Of a stretch of DNA of 14,372 nt, positions 5,046-13,582 are shown piece after piece; position 1 is the first letter of the stretch, and every line of letters begins with the position of its first letter. This DNA comes from Elusimicrobiota bacterium (GTDB taxonomy: Bacteria; Elusimicrobiota; Elusimicrobia; Elusimicrobiales; UBA9959), in NCBI GenBank assembly GCA_016208085.1, contig JACQYT010000096.1, forward strand, positions 1 through 14,372, written 5' to 3'. Below the pieces are notes generated by a model that was given only the letters and a program-made list of their open reading frames with translations, was not told the DNA's origin and ran no database searches. A program made the translations under genes and the position numbers.

Positions 5046-5080
5046 GGCGGCCAAGGTTTAAGGAAACGTCACGAAGTGAG

Positions 5081-5118
5081 CGCCCTCCGGGGGACCGGAG
5101 GGCGTTTTATTTGTGTTT
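5081..5118 (+). terminator. rho-independent terminator of the 2766..5045 gene
   Basis: A perfect 10-bp stem cgccctccgg (5081-5090) / ccggagggcg (5095-5104) with loop ggga, followed by ttttatttgtgttt. Confidence 0.85.
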
Positions 5119-5196: not shown

Positions 5197-5298
5197 ATGA
5201 CAAAGGATAAAAATATCAAGTCTTTTATGCCCGCTGAAGTGATTGAAAACAAGGGGGGAAAGGTAGCAGGCACCTTTTCTTTATCCTCCGGGCCTTAG
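5197..5298 (+). CDS. small ORF, 33 aa (MTKDKNIKSFMPAEVIENKGGKVAGTFSLSSGP)
   Basis: A GGAGG Shine-Dalgarno at 5184-5188 lies 8 nt upstream of the ATG at 5197. The stop TAG at 5296-5298 lies inside the left terminal repeat of the 5293..5451 element. No homolog recognised, and coding status is uncertain. Confidence 0.3.
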   Translation: MTKDKNIKSFMPAEVIENKGGKVAGTFSLSSGP

Positions 5299-5451
5299 GA
5301 GCCTCCGCAGAATAACTTGGACATCTGGAGGCACAGCCTTGAGTCGGATGCAAGGCGCGACGACGATAGTGTAGCAGCGCTACATTGAGGAGGAGCAACG
5401 CAGCAGCCGGCCAAAGATGTGCCTTCAAGTTATTCTGCGGAGGCTCCTTAG
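5293..5451. mobile_element. MITE-like element of 158 bp with 23-26-bp terminal inverted repeats
   Basis: Left arm aggagcctccgcagaataacttg (5297-5319) is the perfect reverse complement of the right arm caagttattctgcggaggctcct (5426-5448). The outer 3 nt match 2 of 3 (ctt against cta). The ~106-bp core has no long ORF and contains the short hairpin tgtagc-agc-gctaca. A degenerate second copy lies at 13531..13582. Confidence 0.5.
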
Positions 5452-5736
5452 CTCTATTATTAGCTTGCTTTTGACTGCCTGGGAAATCTCCCATAGGGTA
5501 TGGAGAGTGAGATTTTGCCCGCCCCGCTCTATCCGGGAGATAGTCTGCTGTTTCGTCCCCAGTTTCCTTGCCAGTTGAACCTGAGACATATGAGCGCGCT
5601 CGCGCGCCAAGGCAATCTGAACAGCTAAACGCGCTTCAATGTCCGCCTCTTCAAAGGCTTTCCGAAAACCGGGATCTTTTAGATCCTTTCTCAATACCTC
5701 GTTTAACGGAATCCCGGCTTGAATTTTTTTCTTCAT
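5425..5736 (-). CDS. higA: XRE-family helix-turn-helix antitoxin (HigA-like)
   Basis: Contains a canonical HTH (MSQVQLARKLGTKQQTISRIERGGQNLTLHTL). It starts 4 nt after the toxin stop (TAA-cgat-ATG), in the usual toxin-then-antitoxin hig order. The last 9 codons (ELRSLRRIT) are encoded by the right terminal repeat of the MITE-like element. Confidence 0.8.
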   Translation of the reverse strand: MKKKIQAGIPLNEVLRKDLKDPGFRKAFEEADIEARLAVQIALARERAHMSQVQLARKLGTKQQTISRIERGGQNLTLHTLWEISQAVKSKLIIELRSLRRIT

Positions 5737-5740
5737 ATCG

Positions 5741-6088
5741 TTAGTCCCCCTTCCTTCTTAACCAGTTCGCGAATGTCCGCTTGGAACGTTCAATCTCGGA
5801 CTTCGGCGCCACCTGCGTCTTCTTCAAGAAAGCATTGGTTATCAAAATTGTTTTACCACAAATCACATAAAGAAACCGGTGTTGATGATGCTCTATCGCA
5901 GGGCGAAGCTCACGGACATTCCTTTCCAACACATCGGCATAAGGCCTTGGTAAATTCGGTCCGTACTCCTGTAATAATGTAAGCCATTTCTTTGCTTTCG
6001 CCTCATGTTTTCTATTTAGGCTTTTAAGATAGTCTAAAGGCTGGCTGCATCCGTTTTCGTCCTGGTAGAATACGACTGTATAATCCAT
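5741..6088 (-). CDS. higB: RelE/ParE-superfamily toxin of the Gp49/HigB type (phage-related-protein family)
   Basis: The protein MDYTVVFYQDENGCSQPLDYLKSL...RELRP...HRFLYVICGKTILITNAFLKKTQVAPKSEIERSKRTF matches the Gp49-like HigB toxin pattern. The track ORF starts 6 codons upstream (6106), but those codons contain the -10 box. The start was placed at 6088 so the mRNA is leaderless. Confidence 0.8.
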   Translation of the reverse strand: MDYTVVFYQDENGCSQPLDYLKSLNRKHEAKAKKWLTLLQEYGPNLPRPYADVLERNVRELRPAIEHHQHRFLYVICGKTILITNAFLKKTQVAPKSEIERSKRTFANWLRRKGD

Positions 6089-6094
6089 AATATT

Positions 6095-6123
6095 AGTATA
6101 CAGCATATACGCTGTTTTGTCAA
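6095..6123 (-). promoter_or_regulatory. near-consensus sigma70 promoter (TTGACA, 17 bp spacer, TATACT) for higBA with a leaderless start
   Basis: Read on the minus strand: TTGACA (6123-6118), a 17-nt spacer, then TATACT (6100-6095). The -10 ends 6 nt before the ATG at 6088, so transcription is predicted to start at or next to the start codon. Confidence 0.6.
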
Positions 6124-6514: not shown

Positions 6515-7579
6515 TCAGTGTTTTATCTTTGAGTCCACGCCGAAGATGTGGGAGATCAGGGCGGCCCGGGCCCACATGCCGTTGCGCTCCTGGCGCCAGA
6601 AAACGGCGCGCGGGTCTTCGTCCACCGAAACCTCTATCTCGTGGCGCCGCGGGAGCGGGTGCATGATAACGCAGGTCTTCTTAATGACCTTTAGATGTTC
6701 ATGTTTGAAATAAAAAGGGGAATAATCCACTTTTTTTGACTCGCCGGACTTGTCGTGCTCGTCCTGGATGCGGGTCATGTAAATAGCGTCCGCGCCGTCC
6801 ATCACCGATGAAAAATCCCCGGTCTCGGTATACGGCATCTTGTGCCGCTTTAAAAACTCCAGGATGTCCTGTTCCATCCGGAACTGCTCCGGGGACACGA
6901 AGGCCAGCTTTATGTTCTTATAGTTTTTCATCAGGTAAGTGAGCGAACGTACGGTTCTGCCGCGCTTTAAATCTCCGACCATCACTATCGTTTTATTGTC
7001 CATCTCGCCGTTAAAACTCCTGTAAAGCGTGTAGGTGTCAAGCAACGCCTGGGTCGGGTGCTGGTCCTTGCCCGAGCCGCCGTTTATGATCGGCACCGGC
7101 CTGTTGGTGCGGTTCATCAACCAGGCCGTTTTCTCCACGAAACCGGGCGCCGGATGCCGCATGATTATTAGGTCGACGTAGCTTGAGAACGTGCGCACGG
7201 TGTCCTCGGGGCTTTCGCCCTTCACTTCGGAGGAAGTGGAGGTGTCGCGTATCTCGGAGATCTTTATCCCCAGGATATGACAGGCGTTCAGAAAAGAAAG
7301 GAAAGTTCTGGTGGACGGCTGGACGAAATAAAGCATCGCCCGCCTGTCGGACAAAAGGTTGGAGACGAAGTCCATGCCTTCTTTATGCTGCGTCAGCGTC
7401 CTTAAAGCCTCGGCCGTCTTAAAAAGATTGGTCAGGATCTCGCGGTTGAACTGCTGGGCGAAAAGGCAGTCGTAAAGACGGCCCTCTTTGGCGAAAAAAG
7501 GCAACTTTTCCGAGATTTCTTTTGAGTAAAACTCGTCCCAATTGGCGTTTATGCTGGTCATCACCGGGGTTCTTTCCAT
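6515..7579 (-). CDS. aspartate/ornithine carbamoyltransferase-family protein of the ATCase type, divergent, with an N-terminal extension of about 45 aa
   Basis: Carries the signature motifs STRTF (canonical is STRTR), HPTQ, HPLP (ATCase-type; OTCases have HCLP) and YMTRIQDEH (canonical is TRxQxER). It is the last gene of the flotillin operon. The start at 7579 is preferred over 7561, with a weak AAGGCGG SD. Confidence 0.75.
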   Translation of the reverse strand: MERTPVMTSINANWDEFYSKEISEKLPFFAKEGRLYDCLFAQQFNREILTNLFKTAEALRTLTQHKEGMDFVSNLLSDRRAMLYFVQPSTRTFLSFLNACHILGIKISEIRDTSTSSEVKGESPEDTVRTFSSYVDLIIMRHPAPGFVEKTAWLMNRTNRPVPIINGGSGKDQHPTQALLDTYTLYRSFNGEMDNKTIVMVGDLKRGRTVRSLTYLMKNYKNIKLAFVSPEQFRMEQDILEFLKRHKMPYTETGDFSSVMDGADAIYMTRIQDEHDKSGESKKVDYSPFYFKHEHLKVIKKTCVIMHPLPRRHEIEVSVDEDPRAVFWRQERNGMWARAALISHIFGVDSKIKH

Positions 7580-8242: not shown

Positions 8243-9587
8243 GCTGCCTCCTGGCGTTGGCGGCTTCTATCAGCGATTTTCGTGTTTTGTTCAGGAAATA
8301 AGCCAGGGCGCCCAGCACCAGCCCGCTGACGATGAAAGCCATGCCGGTCTTCATCAGCGTTCCGAAGATATCCATGAACCGGGTGATGATGATAAGAAAG
8401 ATGACGGCGACCCCGCCGTTGATGCGTTTCTCGTCCGATTCCATCGAGCCGGAAACGATCAGGCCGAGCCCCGAGAGGATGATAAGAGCATTCGCTATAA
8501 CCGCTATAGGCTTGGCCCCGGCCTCGGTGGCTCCGAACATCAAGAAGGCGGAGACCATCGAGATGAGCAGCAGGGCTTTGGCCGCCCAGTCTGCGGTCTT
8601 TCCGCTCCCTCCGGCTTTGACCGGCCTTAACACCGTCAGGGCCACGGCCACGGCGAAAATGATCAAGGCCGCGACGACTCCGGAGGGGGAATCCTCCCCG
8701 CGCGGCGCATAGGAAGGCTTGTAGTGCCAGAAGAACGTCATGCCGTAGACCACGGCGAACCAGGCGAGCATGGGCAGTCGCCCCGGCCCTTCGCCGATGG
8801 AGCTGATGCCCAGCCACAGTACCGTCAGCGACGCGGCCGCCAGCAGAATGAACGCCGGGCTGTGCAGCTGGAAGAAGGTGGGGCTCACCAGCGCTATGAA
8901 GAGCCATATCAGCGTTCCGCCAGCGACCCTGTCGCGCCAGGCGAAGGCCTTGAGGCGCGCGAAATATACCCAGAACAGCGCGCAGAATACGAGAAGCACG
9001 GCCAGCCAATGCGTCCAGGGAAAAGCAAAGTCCCCGGAAGTGAACCGCCACTCGACCAGCGAGAACATATTGTTCGGCCGGAAAGCCCCGAAGTAAGCCA
9101 CGCCGAGGAGCAGGACCATAGACAGCGCCGCTGCGATCCTGCGCCCGGTGAAGAAGGCCAGCGGCAGGGAAATCAGCGCCCAGGCGGCGAACGGCTTGAC
9201 CGGGTCGCCGGAGAGCTGGAATACCTGCGCGTAGAGGCCTATGCCGATGGGTGGCATGAAGAACCAGATCACCTCGGCCGGGATGCCGACCGCGGGCTTG
9301 TCCTCCCAGCGTATCGCCGCCTCGGCGACGGCGGCGTAGGCCGCCAGGAAAACCGCTACCTTCGCGATAGCGCCTATCTTGTCCCAGTTGTGCGCGATTA
9401 TAAGGGAGAGGCCGCCGGCGATGAAAATGCCGGCTATGATGCTTATCCAGTGCGCCGCTTTGAACGAGGCGAACAGGCGCTGCGCGTAGATGTTTTCATA
9501 CAGCGCGTCCGCTTGCTGCGGGGTTATAGTCCCCGATGCGGCGGCCGCCGCGAGGTCCCGCTTAAGGCGCTTGTAATAGGAGGCCAT
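8235..9587 (-). CDS. polytopic membrane protein of the DUF2157 type (likely with a fused DUF4401-like region)
   Basis: The N-terminus (MASYYKRLKRDL...TITPQQADALYENI followed by a TM-rich region with NWDKIG) resembles the DUF2157 family, which is typically encoded next to GDYXXLXY proteins. It has at least 10 predicted TM helices. Assigned from recalled family features, with no search run. Confidence 0.65.
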   Translation of the reverse strand: MASYYKRLKRDLAAAAASGTITPQQADALYENIYAQRLFASFKAAHWISIIAGIFIAGGLSLIIAHNWDKIGAIAKVAVFLAAYAAVAEAAIRWEDKPAVGIPAEVIWFFMPPIGIGLYAQVFQLSGDPVKPFAAWALISLPLAFFTGRRIAAALSMVLLLGVAYFGAFRPNNMFSLVEWRFTSGDFAFPWTHWLAVLLVFCALFWVYFARLKAFAWRDRVAGGTLIWLFIALVSPTFFQLHSPAFILLAAASLTVLWLGISSIGEGPGRLPMLAWFAVVYGMTFFWHYKPSYAPRGEDSPSGVVAALIIFAVAVALTVLRPVKAGGSGKTADWAAKALLLISMVSAFLMFGATEAGAKPIAVIANALIILSGLGLIVSGSMESDEKRINGGVAVIFLIIITRFMDIFGTLMKTGMAFIVSGLVLGALAYFLNKTRKSLIEAANARRQHE

Positions 9588-9598
9588 TCAACTCGTCC

Positions 9599-11668
9599 CT
9601 ATTTCTTCTTCGTATCGTCGTCCCTGACGATCTTCATGCCGCCGGTCATCAGGCTGCCTATGAAAGCGGAAAGCATATTATTGCCGCCGCCGTCCGCGCC
9701 GCTGTTCACCACGACGTCCGGGGTTATCTTCACCTTGCCGTTGGAAACCTGTTTCATCACTTCTATCACGGACATCGGGGCCTGCCCGAGCGCCAGCGCC
9801 TGTTTGGTGTAGGCTTCAGCGGTCGCCTGCCCGATGGCGCGTATCTTTTCGCCCTCGGCCCGGCCTACGGCTTCAATGCCGGCGGCTATGCCTTCCTGCT
9901 CAAGCTTCGTGCTCTGCCCTTTGCCCTCGGCCAGGGTTATGGACTGCTGCTTCTGCTGGGTCGCTATCTGCACGTCTATCTCCGCCCTCACGAGATTGGG
10001 CTGCAAATCCGCCTGGGCTTTGGTCTTTTCCATTTCTTTGCGGCGGCCCTCGGCTTCCTGCTGCGCGTCGAACATGGATTTTTGCTGGGTGGCGACCACC
10101 TTGTTGGTCAGCGTCTGCATCAGCCTTTCCGGCAGCTTTATCTGGCAGATCAGCACGCTGACGCATTCCACGTAATATTTTTCAAGCTCCTCCATTATAT
10201 GCTGCTCGGCCTTACGCTGCTGCTCGTGACGGTCCTGCATGAACATCATCGCCTCGGAAGAGGAGGCCTGGTTTCTGAACGAACTGTCCACCAGCGGGTG
10301 AATGACCGCCTCTATCAGGTTGTTGATGGTGCCGATCCTGGCCACCATGTGCGGCGCCTGCTGCGGCTGGACCCGCAGTATGACCTTTACTTCCACGGTC
10401 ATCTCAAAACCGTCTTTTGAGACGATGGCCAGCGGGTCGAAAACCATCGGCACCCGCGTATCCGACTTCTGCTCCGCCCAGTCTATCGTGATGTTGGTGG
10501 TGGGGATTATATGCGGAGTGAAGGCCAGCTTGTTCAGATAATAGGTGCCGGGGCCCAGCACTTCGCGCTGTATGCCGCGGTAGCCCGGCTCCACCACATA
10601 ACGCTCCACGCCGACCTTTATCGGGTCCGGGGAGCCCGGCTGGGGTTTCGGAAGAATCGAAATCGGGTCCTTGCCGACGTTGGAAACTATTACCGCCACC
10701 TCGCCACGCTGCACCATCAGCACGTCGTCTAAGGTTGCGTCGAACATCAGCGGGTTTATATAGAAAGTGCCTGGCTTCAGGAAGTCAAACTGCGGGCCGC
10801 GCTGGCCGGCGTTGGCAAGAAAGGCCGCCGAATCCTGGAATTCGCCGGTGTTGCTGACGCTCCTGGCCACGTATTCGCCCAGCGGCAGTTGTTCGCCGTC
10901 GCGGGCGGTGACCAGCCCCACTTTTTTGGTCGGGATCACGGTGGCGTCTTTTATGACGACGTTGAACAGTTTTGAGTTTATCCGGTAGGAGCCCGGCAAA
11001 AGGATATCTATCTGCGGACCCTTCTGCCCGCCGTTCTCAAGGAAGGCCTGGCCGTTCTGGAAATTATCATGCCCCGCCGTTTTCTTGCCCAGCAGCCGCC
11101 CCGGGGCTATGGGCTGGCCGTCGGTTGCCACGGCTACGCCTATCTGGTTGTTCGGGATCCTGATTATCGGGGCCTTTGCCACTTTGAAAAGGTAAGGGTT
11201 GATCCTGTAAAGCCCGGGCGGCAGCAACTGGACCTGGGGACCCTTGTTCCCGCCGTTCCGCAGGAAGACCTCGCCTTCCTGGAAGAGATCGTGTCCTTCA
11301 ATAACCCCGCCGAAGATCTTTCCCGGGGCTACCGGCAGGCCGTCTATGGATTCCACGAGGCCCACTTCGTTCTCGCCGATAGTCGTCATCGGATGTTTTT
11401 CAACGCGGTAAAGGAAAGGGATCAGCAGGTGAAGGCCCGGCGGCAGGATCCTGGCCTGTATGCCGACTTCGTCCGGCATGGCGGCCACGCGGCCGCGGGG
11501 CATATTCTTTCCCAGCCAGCGCCGCTCTAAAACGGCAATCTGCGCTCCGCCCACCACGACGAAAGCGTTATAAAGAATGATAAAGACAAATAATATAAGG
11601 AATGCGGCCAGTATGGTCGTGCCCCCGCTGGCATTCAGTGCGTCCAGCAGCGCGGAAATATTGAGCAT
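9599..11668 (-). CDS. SPFH/Band-7 flotillin-family protein (YqiK-like), 689 aa, with internal tandem ~75-aa repeats
   Basis: N-terminal TM anchor. Four tandem repeats share G..D.FQ.G..FL.N.G..GPQ...L.PG.YRIN..LF. The C-terminus is an Ala/Glu/Lys/Gln-rich coiled coil (AEGEKIRAIGQATAEAYTKQALALGQ) typical of flotillins. A GGAGG SD lies 6 nt upstream of the ATG. Confidence 0.85.
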   Translation of the reverse strand: MLNISALLDALNASGGTTILAAFLILFVFIILYNAFVVVGGAQIAVLERRWLGKNMPRGRVAAMPDEVGIQARILPPGLHLLIPFLYRVEKHPMTTIGENEVGLVESIDGLPVAPGKIFGGVIEGHDLFQEGEVFLRNGGNKGPQVQLLPPGLYRINPYLFKVAKAPIIRIPNNQIGVAVATDGQPIAPGRLLGKKTAGHDNFQNGQAFLENGGQKGPQIDILLPGSYRINSKLFNVVIKDATVIPTKKVGLVTARDGEQLPLGEYVARSVSNTGEFQDSAAFLANAGQRGPQFDFLKPGTFYINPLMFDATLDDVLMVQRGEVAVIVSNVGKDPISILPKPQPGSPDPIKVGVERYVVEPGYRGIQREVLGPGTYYLNKLAFTPHIIPTTNITIDWAEQKSDTRVPMVFDPLAIVSKDGFEMTVEVKVILRVQPQQAPHMVARIGTINNLIEAVIHPLVDSSFRNQASSSEAMMFMQDRHEQQRKAEQHIMEELEKYYVECVSVLICQIKLPERLMQTLTNKVVATQQKSMFDAQQEAEGRRKEMEKTKAQADLQPNLVRAEIDVQIATQQKQQSITLAEGKGQSTKLEQEGIAAGIEAVGRAEGEKIRAIGQATAEAYTKQALALGQAPMSVIEVMKQVSNGKVKITPDVVVNSGADGGGNNMLSAFIGSLMTGGMKIVRDDDTKKK

Positions 11669-11747
11669 AAGAACCTCCGTTACCCCGAAAATACCGCTGA
11701 ACTTATTCTAGCTTATTTTACCCCCCGGAATAAAAATCCTTTTTAGA

Positions 11748-11776
11748 TTGTTCTGGGCGGGGATGTTTTATAGAAT
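11748..11776 (+). promoter_or_regulatory. candidate promoter (TTGTTC, 17 bp spacer, TAGAAT) for a leaderless 11785 gene
   Basis: TAGAAT at 11771-11776 ends 8 nt before the ATG at 11785, and a TTGTTC -35-like hexamer lies 17 bp upstream. No SD. It is located in the divergent intergenic region shared with the flotillin operon. Confidence 0.3.
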
Positions 11777-11784
11777 CTAACTGG

Positions 11785-13536
11785 ATGAAAGGCCTTATTC
11801 AGGACAAAGTTTCAAAGGTGTTTATTTTCGCGGGCGCGGCGCTGGCGGTGTCGGCGGTTTTTCTGCCGGTGATAAACCCGGACCTGTTCTGGCACCTGTC
11901 GGCGGGCCGGTATATGTTTGAACATCTCGCCGTGCCGCGCGCCGATTTTCTTTCCTGGACGATGCACGGCCGCCCCTGGCTGGATTTTGAGTGGCTGGCC
12001 CAGCTTATCTACTACGGGCTGTTCCTGAAAGGGGGGATGGCGGCGCTTTTCGCGTTCAAGGCCCTCATTCTGGCCCTCGCTGTTTTCGCGTTTTTTAAAA
12101 TAATAAAACTTCACCGGTCCGAAGATTCCGCTTTTTTTCTGCTGCCGTTATTCGCGGCCGGCCTTGTGACCAATTCCGACCTGCGGCCGGAGAACTTTTC
12201 AGTGCTGTTCTTCGTCCTGGTTTTCCGGCGGCTTGAGGTGATAAGGCTTAACCCATCTTACAGGCCGTTCGCCGCGGAACTGGCCTGGGCCGCGGCATTT
12301 TTCGCTTTCTGGACGAACCTGCACGCCGGGTACCTTTACGGCGCCGTACTTATAGCGTTTTATGCGGCCGGAAGTTTTTTTGAGGAAGCGCTGCCTTTCA
12401 TATACGGCCATAAATCCCGTATCCCCTTAGGCAAATGGGCGCAGTACCTTAAACTCCTGGCAGCGGGGGGCGCCGCAAGCCTGATAAACCCGTACGGGGC
12501 GCGGCTCTATGAGGTCATAGCCAATCACCTGCGGTACACAGACGTCCTGCAGGAATATATACAGGAATGGAAGCCGTTCGATCTGACCAATATCTACCAG
12601 TGGCCCTACCTGGCGCTTATGGGGCTGGCTTTCGGCCTGACGCTTTACAGGTTCTTAAAGACCAGGACCATGGTCTACGAGCATCTTATCGCGCTGCTGT
12701 TCTTTGCTTATTTCTCCTCAAATCACGCGCGCCACACGCCGTTTTTCTCGGTCACCGCGGCCGTCTGCCTGGCTGCGCTGCCGCTCTCCGCCGTTATGCG
12801 CCCCGTCCTTCGGGTGGTTTTTAAAATCTCCGTCATAGCCGTTTTCGCCGTTTATTACAGGACTTTTGTCTGGAGCCAGTATTCCGGCGTCGCGCGGTTC
12901 AATAATTATTCCGAAGGCCTGGCCGGATTTCTGCGGCACAACGCCGACCGCCTGGCCGGGCTTAAGATGTTCAACTACTGGGGCTGGGGCGGCTACCTCG
13001 GCTTCGCGCTTTCTCCACGGTACAGGGTGTTCGCGGACGGCAGATATATTTTCCACGAGTTTCTGGAAGAAATGGAAAATTCCCGGAACAGTCCGTCGGT
13101 CTGGGAAAATTTCAATCGCAAGTACGGCTTTGAGCTGATGGTGCTGAACAGGGATAAGACCAAAATAACGGTCAAACAGCGCCTTAAAAGCGGCCGCGAA
13201 ATAATTTCCCGGCGTCCCGCCTATCTCTTTTACCTGCCCAAAAAAGACTGGGCGGTCGTCTATTGGGATATAAAGACCCTCGTCCTGGTGAAGCGGGACG
13301 CCGCGGACGCGGCCTGGCTGGCCGGCAATGAATATAAGGTATTAAGACCGGACGACATGAACAATGTCGCGGCCGCCGCGCTTGACGGCGAGATAAGAAT
13401 GGGCGAGATAAACGGGGAAGCGCAAAGGTTAATGGGCCGGGCCGACGCCCCCGGACCGGCAAAGAACTATCTGGCGGACTGGCTGAAGCTTCTGGAAAAT
13501 CTCTGCAAGGAAAAGAACGCCAAATGCAAACCTTAG
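11785..13536 (+). CDS. polytopic integral membrane protein; GT-C-fold glycosyltransferase-like by inference
   Basis: 583 aa with about 10 TM helices in the N-terminal two-thirds and a soluble C-terminal domain. The first extracytoplasmic loop carries NPDLFWHLSAGRYM...DFLSWT..GRPWLDFEWL, an Asp-containing aromatic motif typical of GT-C enzymes. The specific family was not identified. Confidence 0.7.
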   Translation: MKGLIQDKVSKVFIFAGAALAVSAVFLPVINPDLFWHLSAGRYMFEHLAVPRADFLSWTMHGRPWLDFEWLAQLIYYGLFLKGGMAALFAFKALILALAVFAFFKIIKLHRSEDSAFFLLPLFAAGLVTNSDLRPENFSVLFFVLVFRRLEVIRLNPSYRPFAAELAWAAAFFAFWTNLHAGYLYGAVLIAFYAAGSFFEEALPFIYGHKSRIPLGKWAQYLKLLAAGGAASLINPYGARLYEVIANHLRYTDVLQEYIQEWKPFDLTNIYQWPYLALMGLAFGLTLYRFLKTRTMVYEHLIALLFFAYFSSNHARHTPFFSVTAAVCLAALPLSAVMRPVLRVVFKISVIAVFAVYYRTFVWSQYSGVARFNNYSEGLAGFLRHNADRLAGLKMFNYWGWGGYLGFALSPRYRVFADGRYIFHEFLEEMENSRNSPSVWENFNRKYGFELMVLNRDKTKITVKQRLKSGREIISRRPAYLFYLPKKDWAVVYWDIKTLVLVKRDAADAAWLAGNEYKVLRPDDMNNVAAAALDGEIRMGEINGEAQRLMGRADAPGPAKNYLADWLKLLENLCKEKNAKCKP

Positions 13537-13582
13537 GAGCCTCCGCATACTTTGTGTCAGAAAAATTCTTCGGAGGTTTGCC
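13531..13582. repeat. degenerate short copy of the 5293..5451 element's terminal repeats
   Basis: ccttaggagcctccgca (13531-13547) is identical to 5293-5309. An attcttcggaggtttgcc segment (13565-13582) resembles the right-arm sequence attctgcggaggctcct. The TAG stop of the upstream gene lies within the repeat in this copy, and the same is true for the 5197..5298 ORF and the repeat at 5293. Confidence 0.4.

Follow-up and report, generated by a model that had tools for sequence, protein, structure and literature searches.

The higA antitoxin gene of the window (the whole 14,372-nt stretch of Elusimicrobiota DNA analysed here, contig JACQYT010000096.1) was found to end inside a 150-bp element, which is very probably a miniature inverted-repeat transposable element (MITE) with the ends of ISAzo13-family insertion sequences (ISs) and without a transposase gene. 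The element has terminal inverted repeats (TIRs) and a short target-site duplication (TSD), and is small and devoid of a transposase; its TIRs are common to an autonomous IS, it is dispersed in further copies, and its insertion at higA can be read against empty sites. A family of miniature insertion elements had been one of three readings offered by the original prediction, and it is the one that the IS-derived ends, the further copies with TSDs and the empty sites bear out.

Structure and limits of the element

A repeat search of the window revealed two inverted repeat arms of 26 nt with one mismatch, at 5294-5319 and 5426-5451, placed 106 nt apart, which confirmed the non-coding core of about 106 bp described originally. 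Within these arms, a perfect 23-mer (5297-5319 and 5426-5448) occurred exactly twice in the window, once per strand, and was never recovered in 200 dinucleotide-preserving shuffles. The 23-nt identity reported before was therefore real, but the arms of the element itself measure 22 bp, since the outer TTA belongs to the TSD. In the same way, an inverted-repeat element does exist where one of 158 bp (5293-5451) had been proposed, but its true limits are 5298-5447, or 150 bp, with perfect 22-bp TIRs (GGAGCCTCCGCAGAATAACTTG) beginning with GG. The left TIR (5298-5319, plus strand) is the perfect complement of the right TIR (5426-5447, minus strand), and the two copies of the TSD, both TTA, occupy 5295-5297 and 5448-5450, the latter reading TAA in the higA sense, within the codons cTA Agg, at a place where uninterrupted higA homologues read GAGCTAAGGCCC.

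The core between the arms (5320-5425), referred to here as module B, forms an imperfect long hairpin and was present in all five complete copies of the element, with 79-92% identity to the window copy. Folding as RNA, a check suggested with the original prediction, turned the region 5285-5460 into a single long hairpin on either strand, far beyond chance expectation: the plus strand reached −92 kcal/mol (z = −9.4) and the minus strand −81.7 kcal/mol (z = −6.7). The five-sequence alignment of the core hairpin, which was disturbed by nested inserts, yielded one compensatory pair in a covariation test, and the comparison of the window and the element copies with Rfam gave no match at the gathering threshold or at E ≤ 1. 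The ORFs inside the 150 bp are short and without family match, none of them being a transposase gene. A promoter scan detected no sigma-70-type promoter, outward-facing ones included, in the element or in the MITE copies, and no terminator signal was predicted at the element, the hairpin having no T-run 3′ of it.

Distribution and modular composition of the copies

Few copies were recovered by exact-match pattern scans over about 600 Gb of genomes and JGI metagenomes. An 18-nt arm pattern searched against one genome per species gave eight matches, two of which were real (L008 and L009, both in the Elusimicrobia MAG JAHJSU01), while the other six were fortuitous matches from unrelated phyla. 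The scan of JGI metagenomes contributed the loci L014, L015 and L018, besides the duplicates L016 (= L009) and L017 (= L008). Scans of viral contigs with arm and core patterns returned chance matches only, and a protein search with the ORF read through the MITE gave no matches; an exhaustive search of representative proteins gave one real match, P0145, which led to the copy L036. The arm was present at five other metagenome or MAG loci, as well as at the ends of ISAzo13-family ISs, which went against one of the refuting outcomes named with the original prediction and favoured an insertion. Besides that of the window, complete copies were found at L014, L015, L016 and L036, in unrelated flanks; altogether, five complete and two truncated copies lie in different flanks. 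The 14.4-kb window itself holds one full copy and one 15-nt fragment, and a related MAG, whose neighbouring genes are 87% identical to those of the window at the nucleotide level, carries copies of it elsewhere and possesses a higBA of its own, at a different locus and without the element.

The alignment of the five complete copies demonstrated that they are modular. The 22-bp arms and module B were found in 5/5 copies, whereas a second hairpin of ~125 nt (module A) was found in 4/5 and is absent from the window copy, and a third unit of ~35-45 nt (module C) was nested at varying places; the window copy represents the shortest form. A palindromic unit of ~35-45 nt, GGCCGTCTGATRGGCATAGCCCYTGATACGGCGCC, was observed nested in two MITE copies at different places and in different orientations (L014:~9417-9460 and L015:~1350-1400), and it also stands alone just past a stop codon (L016:10630-10665); it may correspond to a second, smaller repeat family. 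The copy at L036:620-887 diverged from L016 in its ends: its interior was 94% identical (207/220) to that of L016:3003-3282, whereas its arms, GGAGCCGTCAAGAAATAACTG and GGAGCCGTTAAGAAATAACTG, matched at 13-15 of 22 positions, both having changed together while the interior remained constant. Two origins are conceivable: co-evolution of these arms with another transposase, or re-capping of a conserved interior.

The copies also leave traces in assemblies and annotations. An ORF on the minus strand of the window (5225-5494) is open through the whole element, and P0145 (L036:665-1735) is a 356-aa predicted protein whose ~75 N-terminal residues are translated MITE; such spurious extension of ORFs is an annotation artefact to be expected wherever the repeat occurs. 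An identical higA was found on four Logan contigs (SRR12113398, -399, -404 and -405), all four of which break inside the element core, and one of them continues with a variant core reading GTAGCCC instead of GTAGCGC. An assembly graph breaks in this way where a repeat exists in two or more versions.

Relationship with ISAzo13-family insertion sequences

The origin of the arms was indicated by L018, in which an arm identical at 22/22 positions lies 6 nt past the stop of a transposase ORF. This ORF matched Pfam PF07592 (DDE_Tnp_ISAZ013, E = 9e-86) and the NCBIfam equivalog NF033519 "ISAzo13 family transposase" (E = 8e-91, 305 bits, the cut-off being 200). A transposase 90% identical to it (P0002) is encoded on L019, a complete 1308-bp IS with TTA on both sides, whose ends, GGAGCATCCGCAAAATAATTTGAACAAG and GAGCCTCCGCAAAATAACTTGAACAAG, differ from the window arm by 3 and 2 mismatches in 22 (19/22 and 20/22). 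In more distant ISs of the same family from Elusimicrobia and other metagenomes (L020 and L021), the inner AATAACTTRAACAAC is kept and the outer ten bases vary. It was also observed that in L019:137-426 the N-terminal helix-turn-helix part of the transposase lies in a different frame from the catalytic part, which may reflect a frameshift mutation or a sequencing error, and this copy of the IS is possibly inactive.

The ISfinder family table lists GG at the ends of ISAzo13, and the annotated ISAzo13 ISs of finished Streptomyces plasmids (L043 and L044) start with GG between TTA flanks. The element resembles the ISAzo13 ISs in the terminal repeats that it shares with L018 and L019, in its GG start, and in its 3-bp TTA/TAA duplication, as in L043 and L044. 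It differs from them in lacking a transposase and in its length, 150 bp against about 1.3 kb; moreover, past the first ~26 nt its interior is an unrelated hairpin, so that it is not an internally deleted IS. Another annotated ISAzo13 IS (L042:562-2330, Streptomyces plasmid NZ_CP109358.1) has perfect 22-bp arms, with TTA as its left and TAA as its right flank; these unmatched flanks could result from recombination between copies, which occupy four places in that record, or be exceptions to the family rule. Duplications of 3 bp are documented for the ISAzo13 family and also for its reported relative Zator (PMC10045372); Zator, a eukaryotic superfamily (PMC10045372, PMC5718144), is of interest here as family background only.

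Judging from its ends, the element would be mobilised in trans by an ISAzo13-type DDE transposase. Such an enzyme, supplied from elsewhere, would bind both ends and cut a TTA/TAA target with a 3-nt stagger, and repair would then duplicate the triplet on both sides.

Target duplication and stop codons

When the ends of the element were taken as starting with GG, the flanking triplets were alike on both sides of every complete copy: TTA for the window copy and L016, TAA for L014, L015 and L036, and again TTA for the IS L019. Since TTA and TAA are reverse complements, they represent one target in two orientations. Five matched TTA/TAA pairs would be expected with p ~1/32 if each end were independently TTA or TAA. 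A 4-bp duplication, TTAG, was also considered; it fits L019 but not the MITE copies, and 3 bp was preferred.

The same target accounts for the stop codons at the ends of the element. Beside the terminal G of the element, TTA gives TAG and TAA gives TAA, and two further stops are found within the arm when it is read inward, a TAA at +15 (GAATAAC) and a TGA at +20 (CTTGA). As a consequence of the junction stop and of these in-arm stops, an ORF entering the element ends immediately or at most eight codons later, in two or three frames, which explains all three stop-codon coincidences pointed out originally; to call it unusual that a dispersed repeat should hit or supply stop codons was an overstatement. 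MITEs that overlap gene 3′ ends by 1-50 bp are already known from Coxiella, namely QMITE1 and QMITE2 (PMC5896051).

One of these coincidences is the 33-aa ORF at 5197-5298 (plus strand), whose coordinates confirmed that it stops at the TAG of the left end of the element. This ORF, MTKDKNIKSFMPAEVIENKGGKVAGTFSLSSGP, is possibly a gene, with a strong AGGAGG ribosome-binding site at a distance of 7 nt before it; it had no Pfam match, was not conserved beside the homologous higA loci, and its TAG would be there with or without the insertion. At another locus, a 170-aa ORF that follows an ECF sigma-factor gene (L016:3260-3772, minus strand) enters an arm and ends ...RSLRRVT*, its reconstructed pre-insertion end being ...AVRR*; frame and outcome are the same as for the higA of the window.

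Insertion into higA and empty sites

The toxin gene precedes the antitoxin gene in the window, as is typical of higBA. The higB-type toxin (Gp49/DUF891; Pfam PF05973, E = 1.6e-15) is encoded at 5741-6106 on the minus strand, upstream of higA and outside the element, and higA, which encodes an HTH_3/XRE protein (Pfam HTH_3, E = 1.3e-13), occupies 5425-5736 on the same strand, its TGA (5425-5427) lying inside the right arm. It was confirmed that the right repeat overlaps the 3′ end of higA and that the 103-aa protein ends ...ELRSLRRIT*. The contribution of the element is smaller than the nine codons first attributed to it: the right TIR provides the last 6 2/3 codons, that is, two bases of an Arg codon and six full codons (SLRRIT), followed by the stop.

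That this 3′ end is chimeric was revealed by homologue alignment and by reconstruction. In twelve HigA homologues, with 61-91% identity across the full alignment, the C-terminus reads ...ELRPGG, RPGL, RPGV, RPER or RP, and SLRRIT was found in 0/12; this comparison with native C-termini, which had been proposed as a check, pointed to an insertion, as the homologues end ...ELRPG(G/L/V) and not in the repeat-encoded tail. When 5298-5450, comprising the element and one TTA, was deleted in silico, a 98-aa HigA ending ...IIELRPGG* was restored, and the reconstructed DNA (GAGCTAAGGCCCGGAGGATAA, also given as ...AATAATAGAGCTAAGGCCCGGAGGATAA...) was colinear with the uninterrupted loci L027-L030 and L035, of which L027-L029 read GAGCTAAGGCCCGAAAGATAA and L030 and L035 read GAGTTAAGGCCTGGAGGATAA/TAG. 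From this reconstruction, the empty allele at higA is predicted to read GAGCTAAGGCCCGGAGG. Homologous higBA modules from other genomic contexts serve as the empty sites, the higBA region being a variable island; a strictly orthologous empty locus was not found, as the related MAG has a different island after the aspartate carbamoyltransferase gene.

The element entered a TAA triplet that spans the codons cTA-Agg, at a distance of four codons from the natural stop of higA, and translation now continues for 20 nt into the element up to the in-arm TGA, the tail PGG being replaced by SLRRIT. The effect on higBA appears to be small, and after this swap of three residues and extension by three more the antitoxin is probably still functional. 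The SLRRIT tail lies beyond the HTH domain (Pfam match 41-87), and a functional chimeric antitoxin is consistent with the intact toxin gene and with the stability of the allele across samples. Beyond the element as seen from higA, at about 5230-5270, there is a hairpin resembling a weak native terminator; because the element lies upstream of this signal, the higBA 3′ UTR probably contains the transcribed element as a hairpin of 150 nt. Other signals of this region include a near-consensus promoter-like site, TTGACA-17-TATACT, at 6123-6095 (minus strand), upstream of higB, and a strong intrinsic terminator at 5078-5107 (plus strand), after a gene for a 776-aa secreted protein.

Alternative explanations

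REPs, with units of 20-40 nt, are linked to Y1 (RAYT) transposases, and REP/RAYT elements are not known to make a target duplication. Such a host palindrome of the REP/REPIN or BIME kind, RAYT-mobilised or host-maintained, with the main role of stabilising or terminating the higBA transcript at its 3′ end, would share with the element its palindromic structure, its intergenic location and its probable transcription into mRNA 3′ ends: the hairpin is very stable on the higBA RNA strand (−82 kcal/mol), it is placed after the higA stop and before what is probably the native terminator, and its relatives are mosaics of several hairpin modules, as in BIMEs. However, a 3-bp duplication flanks each complete copy, the ends correspond to a DDE-type IS and not to REPs, no RAYT gene was seen, and the hairpin has neither a T-run after it nor a terminator prediction. 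With TSDs present and ends taken from a DDE IS, a REP-like stabiliser, as suggested in the original prediction, is very unlikely, and transcript stabilisation could be a secondary consequence of the insertion. A site-specific recombination site, such as an integron attC-like site bounding a higBA cassette, is still less probable, despite the fact that toxin-antitoxin cassettes are common in integrons, that attC sites are imperfect palindromes of similar size often overlapping the stop of the cassette gene, and that higBA lies in a variable island where homology to the related MAG ends at 6515. The consensus of attC R″/R′ is RYYYAAC/GTTRRRY, and the inner motifs of the element, GAATAAC and GTTATTC, fall outside it; furthermore, pairing runs 15 nt past these motifs to the tips, unlike in attC sites, and the window contains no integrase and no array. 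Other copies are placed upstream of housekeeping genes (Ham1/rdgB-like and cinA-like), not in cassette arrays, and the 3-bp duplications and IS ends offer a better account of the data.

Least probable is that the repeat forms a native part of higA or of its regulatory 3′ region, for which the presence of an identical allele of higA plus repeat in four to five samples, and thus its stability in the population, could be invoked. The tail that it encodes is missing from the whole set of homologues compared above, the uninterrupted ones are colinear with the reconstructed empty site, and the same repeat occurs beside unrelated genes elsewhere. An ISAzo13-related MITE inserted into higA remains the preferred interpretation of the element.

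Possible adaptation to gene junctions

A more specific, though rather improbable, possibility is that this MITE subfamily has become adapted to tight gene junctions and that its interior, conserved at 94% between L016 and L036 although their arms differ at 7-9 of 22 positions on both sides, might be a functional RNA or protein-binding module, not filler. Each tip bears an outward-facing GGAGG 4 nt from the end and, inward, stops in two or three frames. By inserting at the TAA/TTA of a stop codon or of a ribosome-binding-site spacer, the element could bring the gene before it to an end within 8 codons and equip the gene after it with a Shine-Dalgarno sequence. Tips located 0-2 nt before start codons were observed for a cinA-like gene (MoCF_biosynth; L014:9704-9711), a Ham1/rdgB-like gene (L015:1442-1448) and a membrane-protein ORF (L017:7962-7966), the starts of the first two being backed by Pfam alignments from profile position 2. 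At these three loci, the GGAGG of the arm was the sole Shine-Dalgarno-like motif, 7-9 nt upstream of the starts, and the element may supply the ribosome-binding site there. In a full-length transcript, the GGAGG would pair with the other arm, and the arms of L036, which is not next to a start codon, have no GGAGG. These observations on tips near starts and on GGAGG come from few copies.

Comparison with known MITEs and significance

Neisseria Correia elements and Rickettsia palindromic elements are similar bacterial repeats that overlap gene ends. A close comparison may be made with the Coxiella QMITE1 and QMITE2 (PMC5896051), which are likewise small and non-autonomous, form hairpins, have inverted-repeat ends and are flanked by brief duplications of A/T-rich targets. 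Genes tolerate their insertion within the final codons, and the element then supplies C-terminal residues and the stop. As in bacterial gene-end MITEs, the reading frame can also stay open through the element, as it does in the window ORF on the minus strand described above. Unlike QMITE1/QMITE2-type MITEs, the element derives from a different parent IS family, uses a different target (TTA/TAA, 3 bp) and has an apparently low copy number, and it differs from gene-end MITEs in that no outward sigma-70-type promoter was detected in it. A literature search found no MITE tied to ISAzo13 and no MITE in Elusimicrobia; the element is thus of an ordinary kind, but the MITE family itself appears to be undescribed.

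With these results, a small repeat of uncultured Elusimicrobia gains a parent, the ISAzo13 family, and a target, TTA/TAA with a 3-bp duplication. It provides a clean case in which the C-terminus of an antitoxin was rewritten by a mobile element and the gene was not destroyed, and it is of practical concern for assembly and annotation, as contigs break in the element and gene callers run ORFs through it. Since the mechanism is conventional, its value is descriptive and not conceptual, unless the adaptation to gene junctions or the conservation of the interior holds up.

The fragment at 13531 and the neighbouring genes

A truncated relative of the element had been placed at 13531-13582, with its TAG coinciding with the stop of a 583-aa gene. 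The coincidence was verified, as the stop of this ORF (11785-13536) is the TAG at 13534-13536, made by the TA and G of the fragment, but the part that belongs to the element is limited to TTA and the 12 outermost nt of the repeat (GGAGCCTCCGCA; 13533-13547, plus strand), within a 17-nt identity, CCTTAGGAGCCTCCGCA, between 13531 and 5293-5309. The site folds no better than shuffles (z = 0.19), and the sequence past the fragment is unrelated to the element. In the related MAG, the 583-aa orthologue (80% identical) has the same end residues, ...AKCKP, but a TGA stop, and nucleotide homology with this MAG (L039-L041) ends exactly at 13532. With moderate confidence, the site can be regarded as what is left of an element end at the breakpoint of a rearrangement; the right partner has been lost, as has the remainder of the arm. 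An interpretation of the sequence beyond the fragment as a truncated DUF4143 gene was unsupported.

The window is a complete contig, whose genes bear the locus tags HY796_10690-10725 (proteins MBI4802977-85), and it differs from the related MAG in gene content in other places as well. Near higBA, homology ends at the stop of the aspartate carbamoyltransferase gene (window 6515-6589). In the related MAG, the last 73 nt of this gene are duplicated beyond an AAA_14/DUF4143 gene (L039:7033-7105 and 8608-8680), in a manner that resembles the att duplication of an integrated element, and cas1 and cas2 follow in L040. The window instead carries higBA and the MITE at a hotspot where the related MAG has an AAA_14/DUF4143 and cas1/cas2 island. 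Finally, the 689-aa SPFH/Band 7 gene of the window (9591-11804) is missing from the otherwise syntenic L039-L041, which represents an indel between close relatives.
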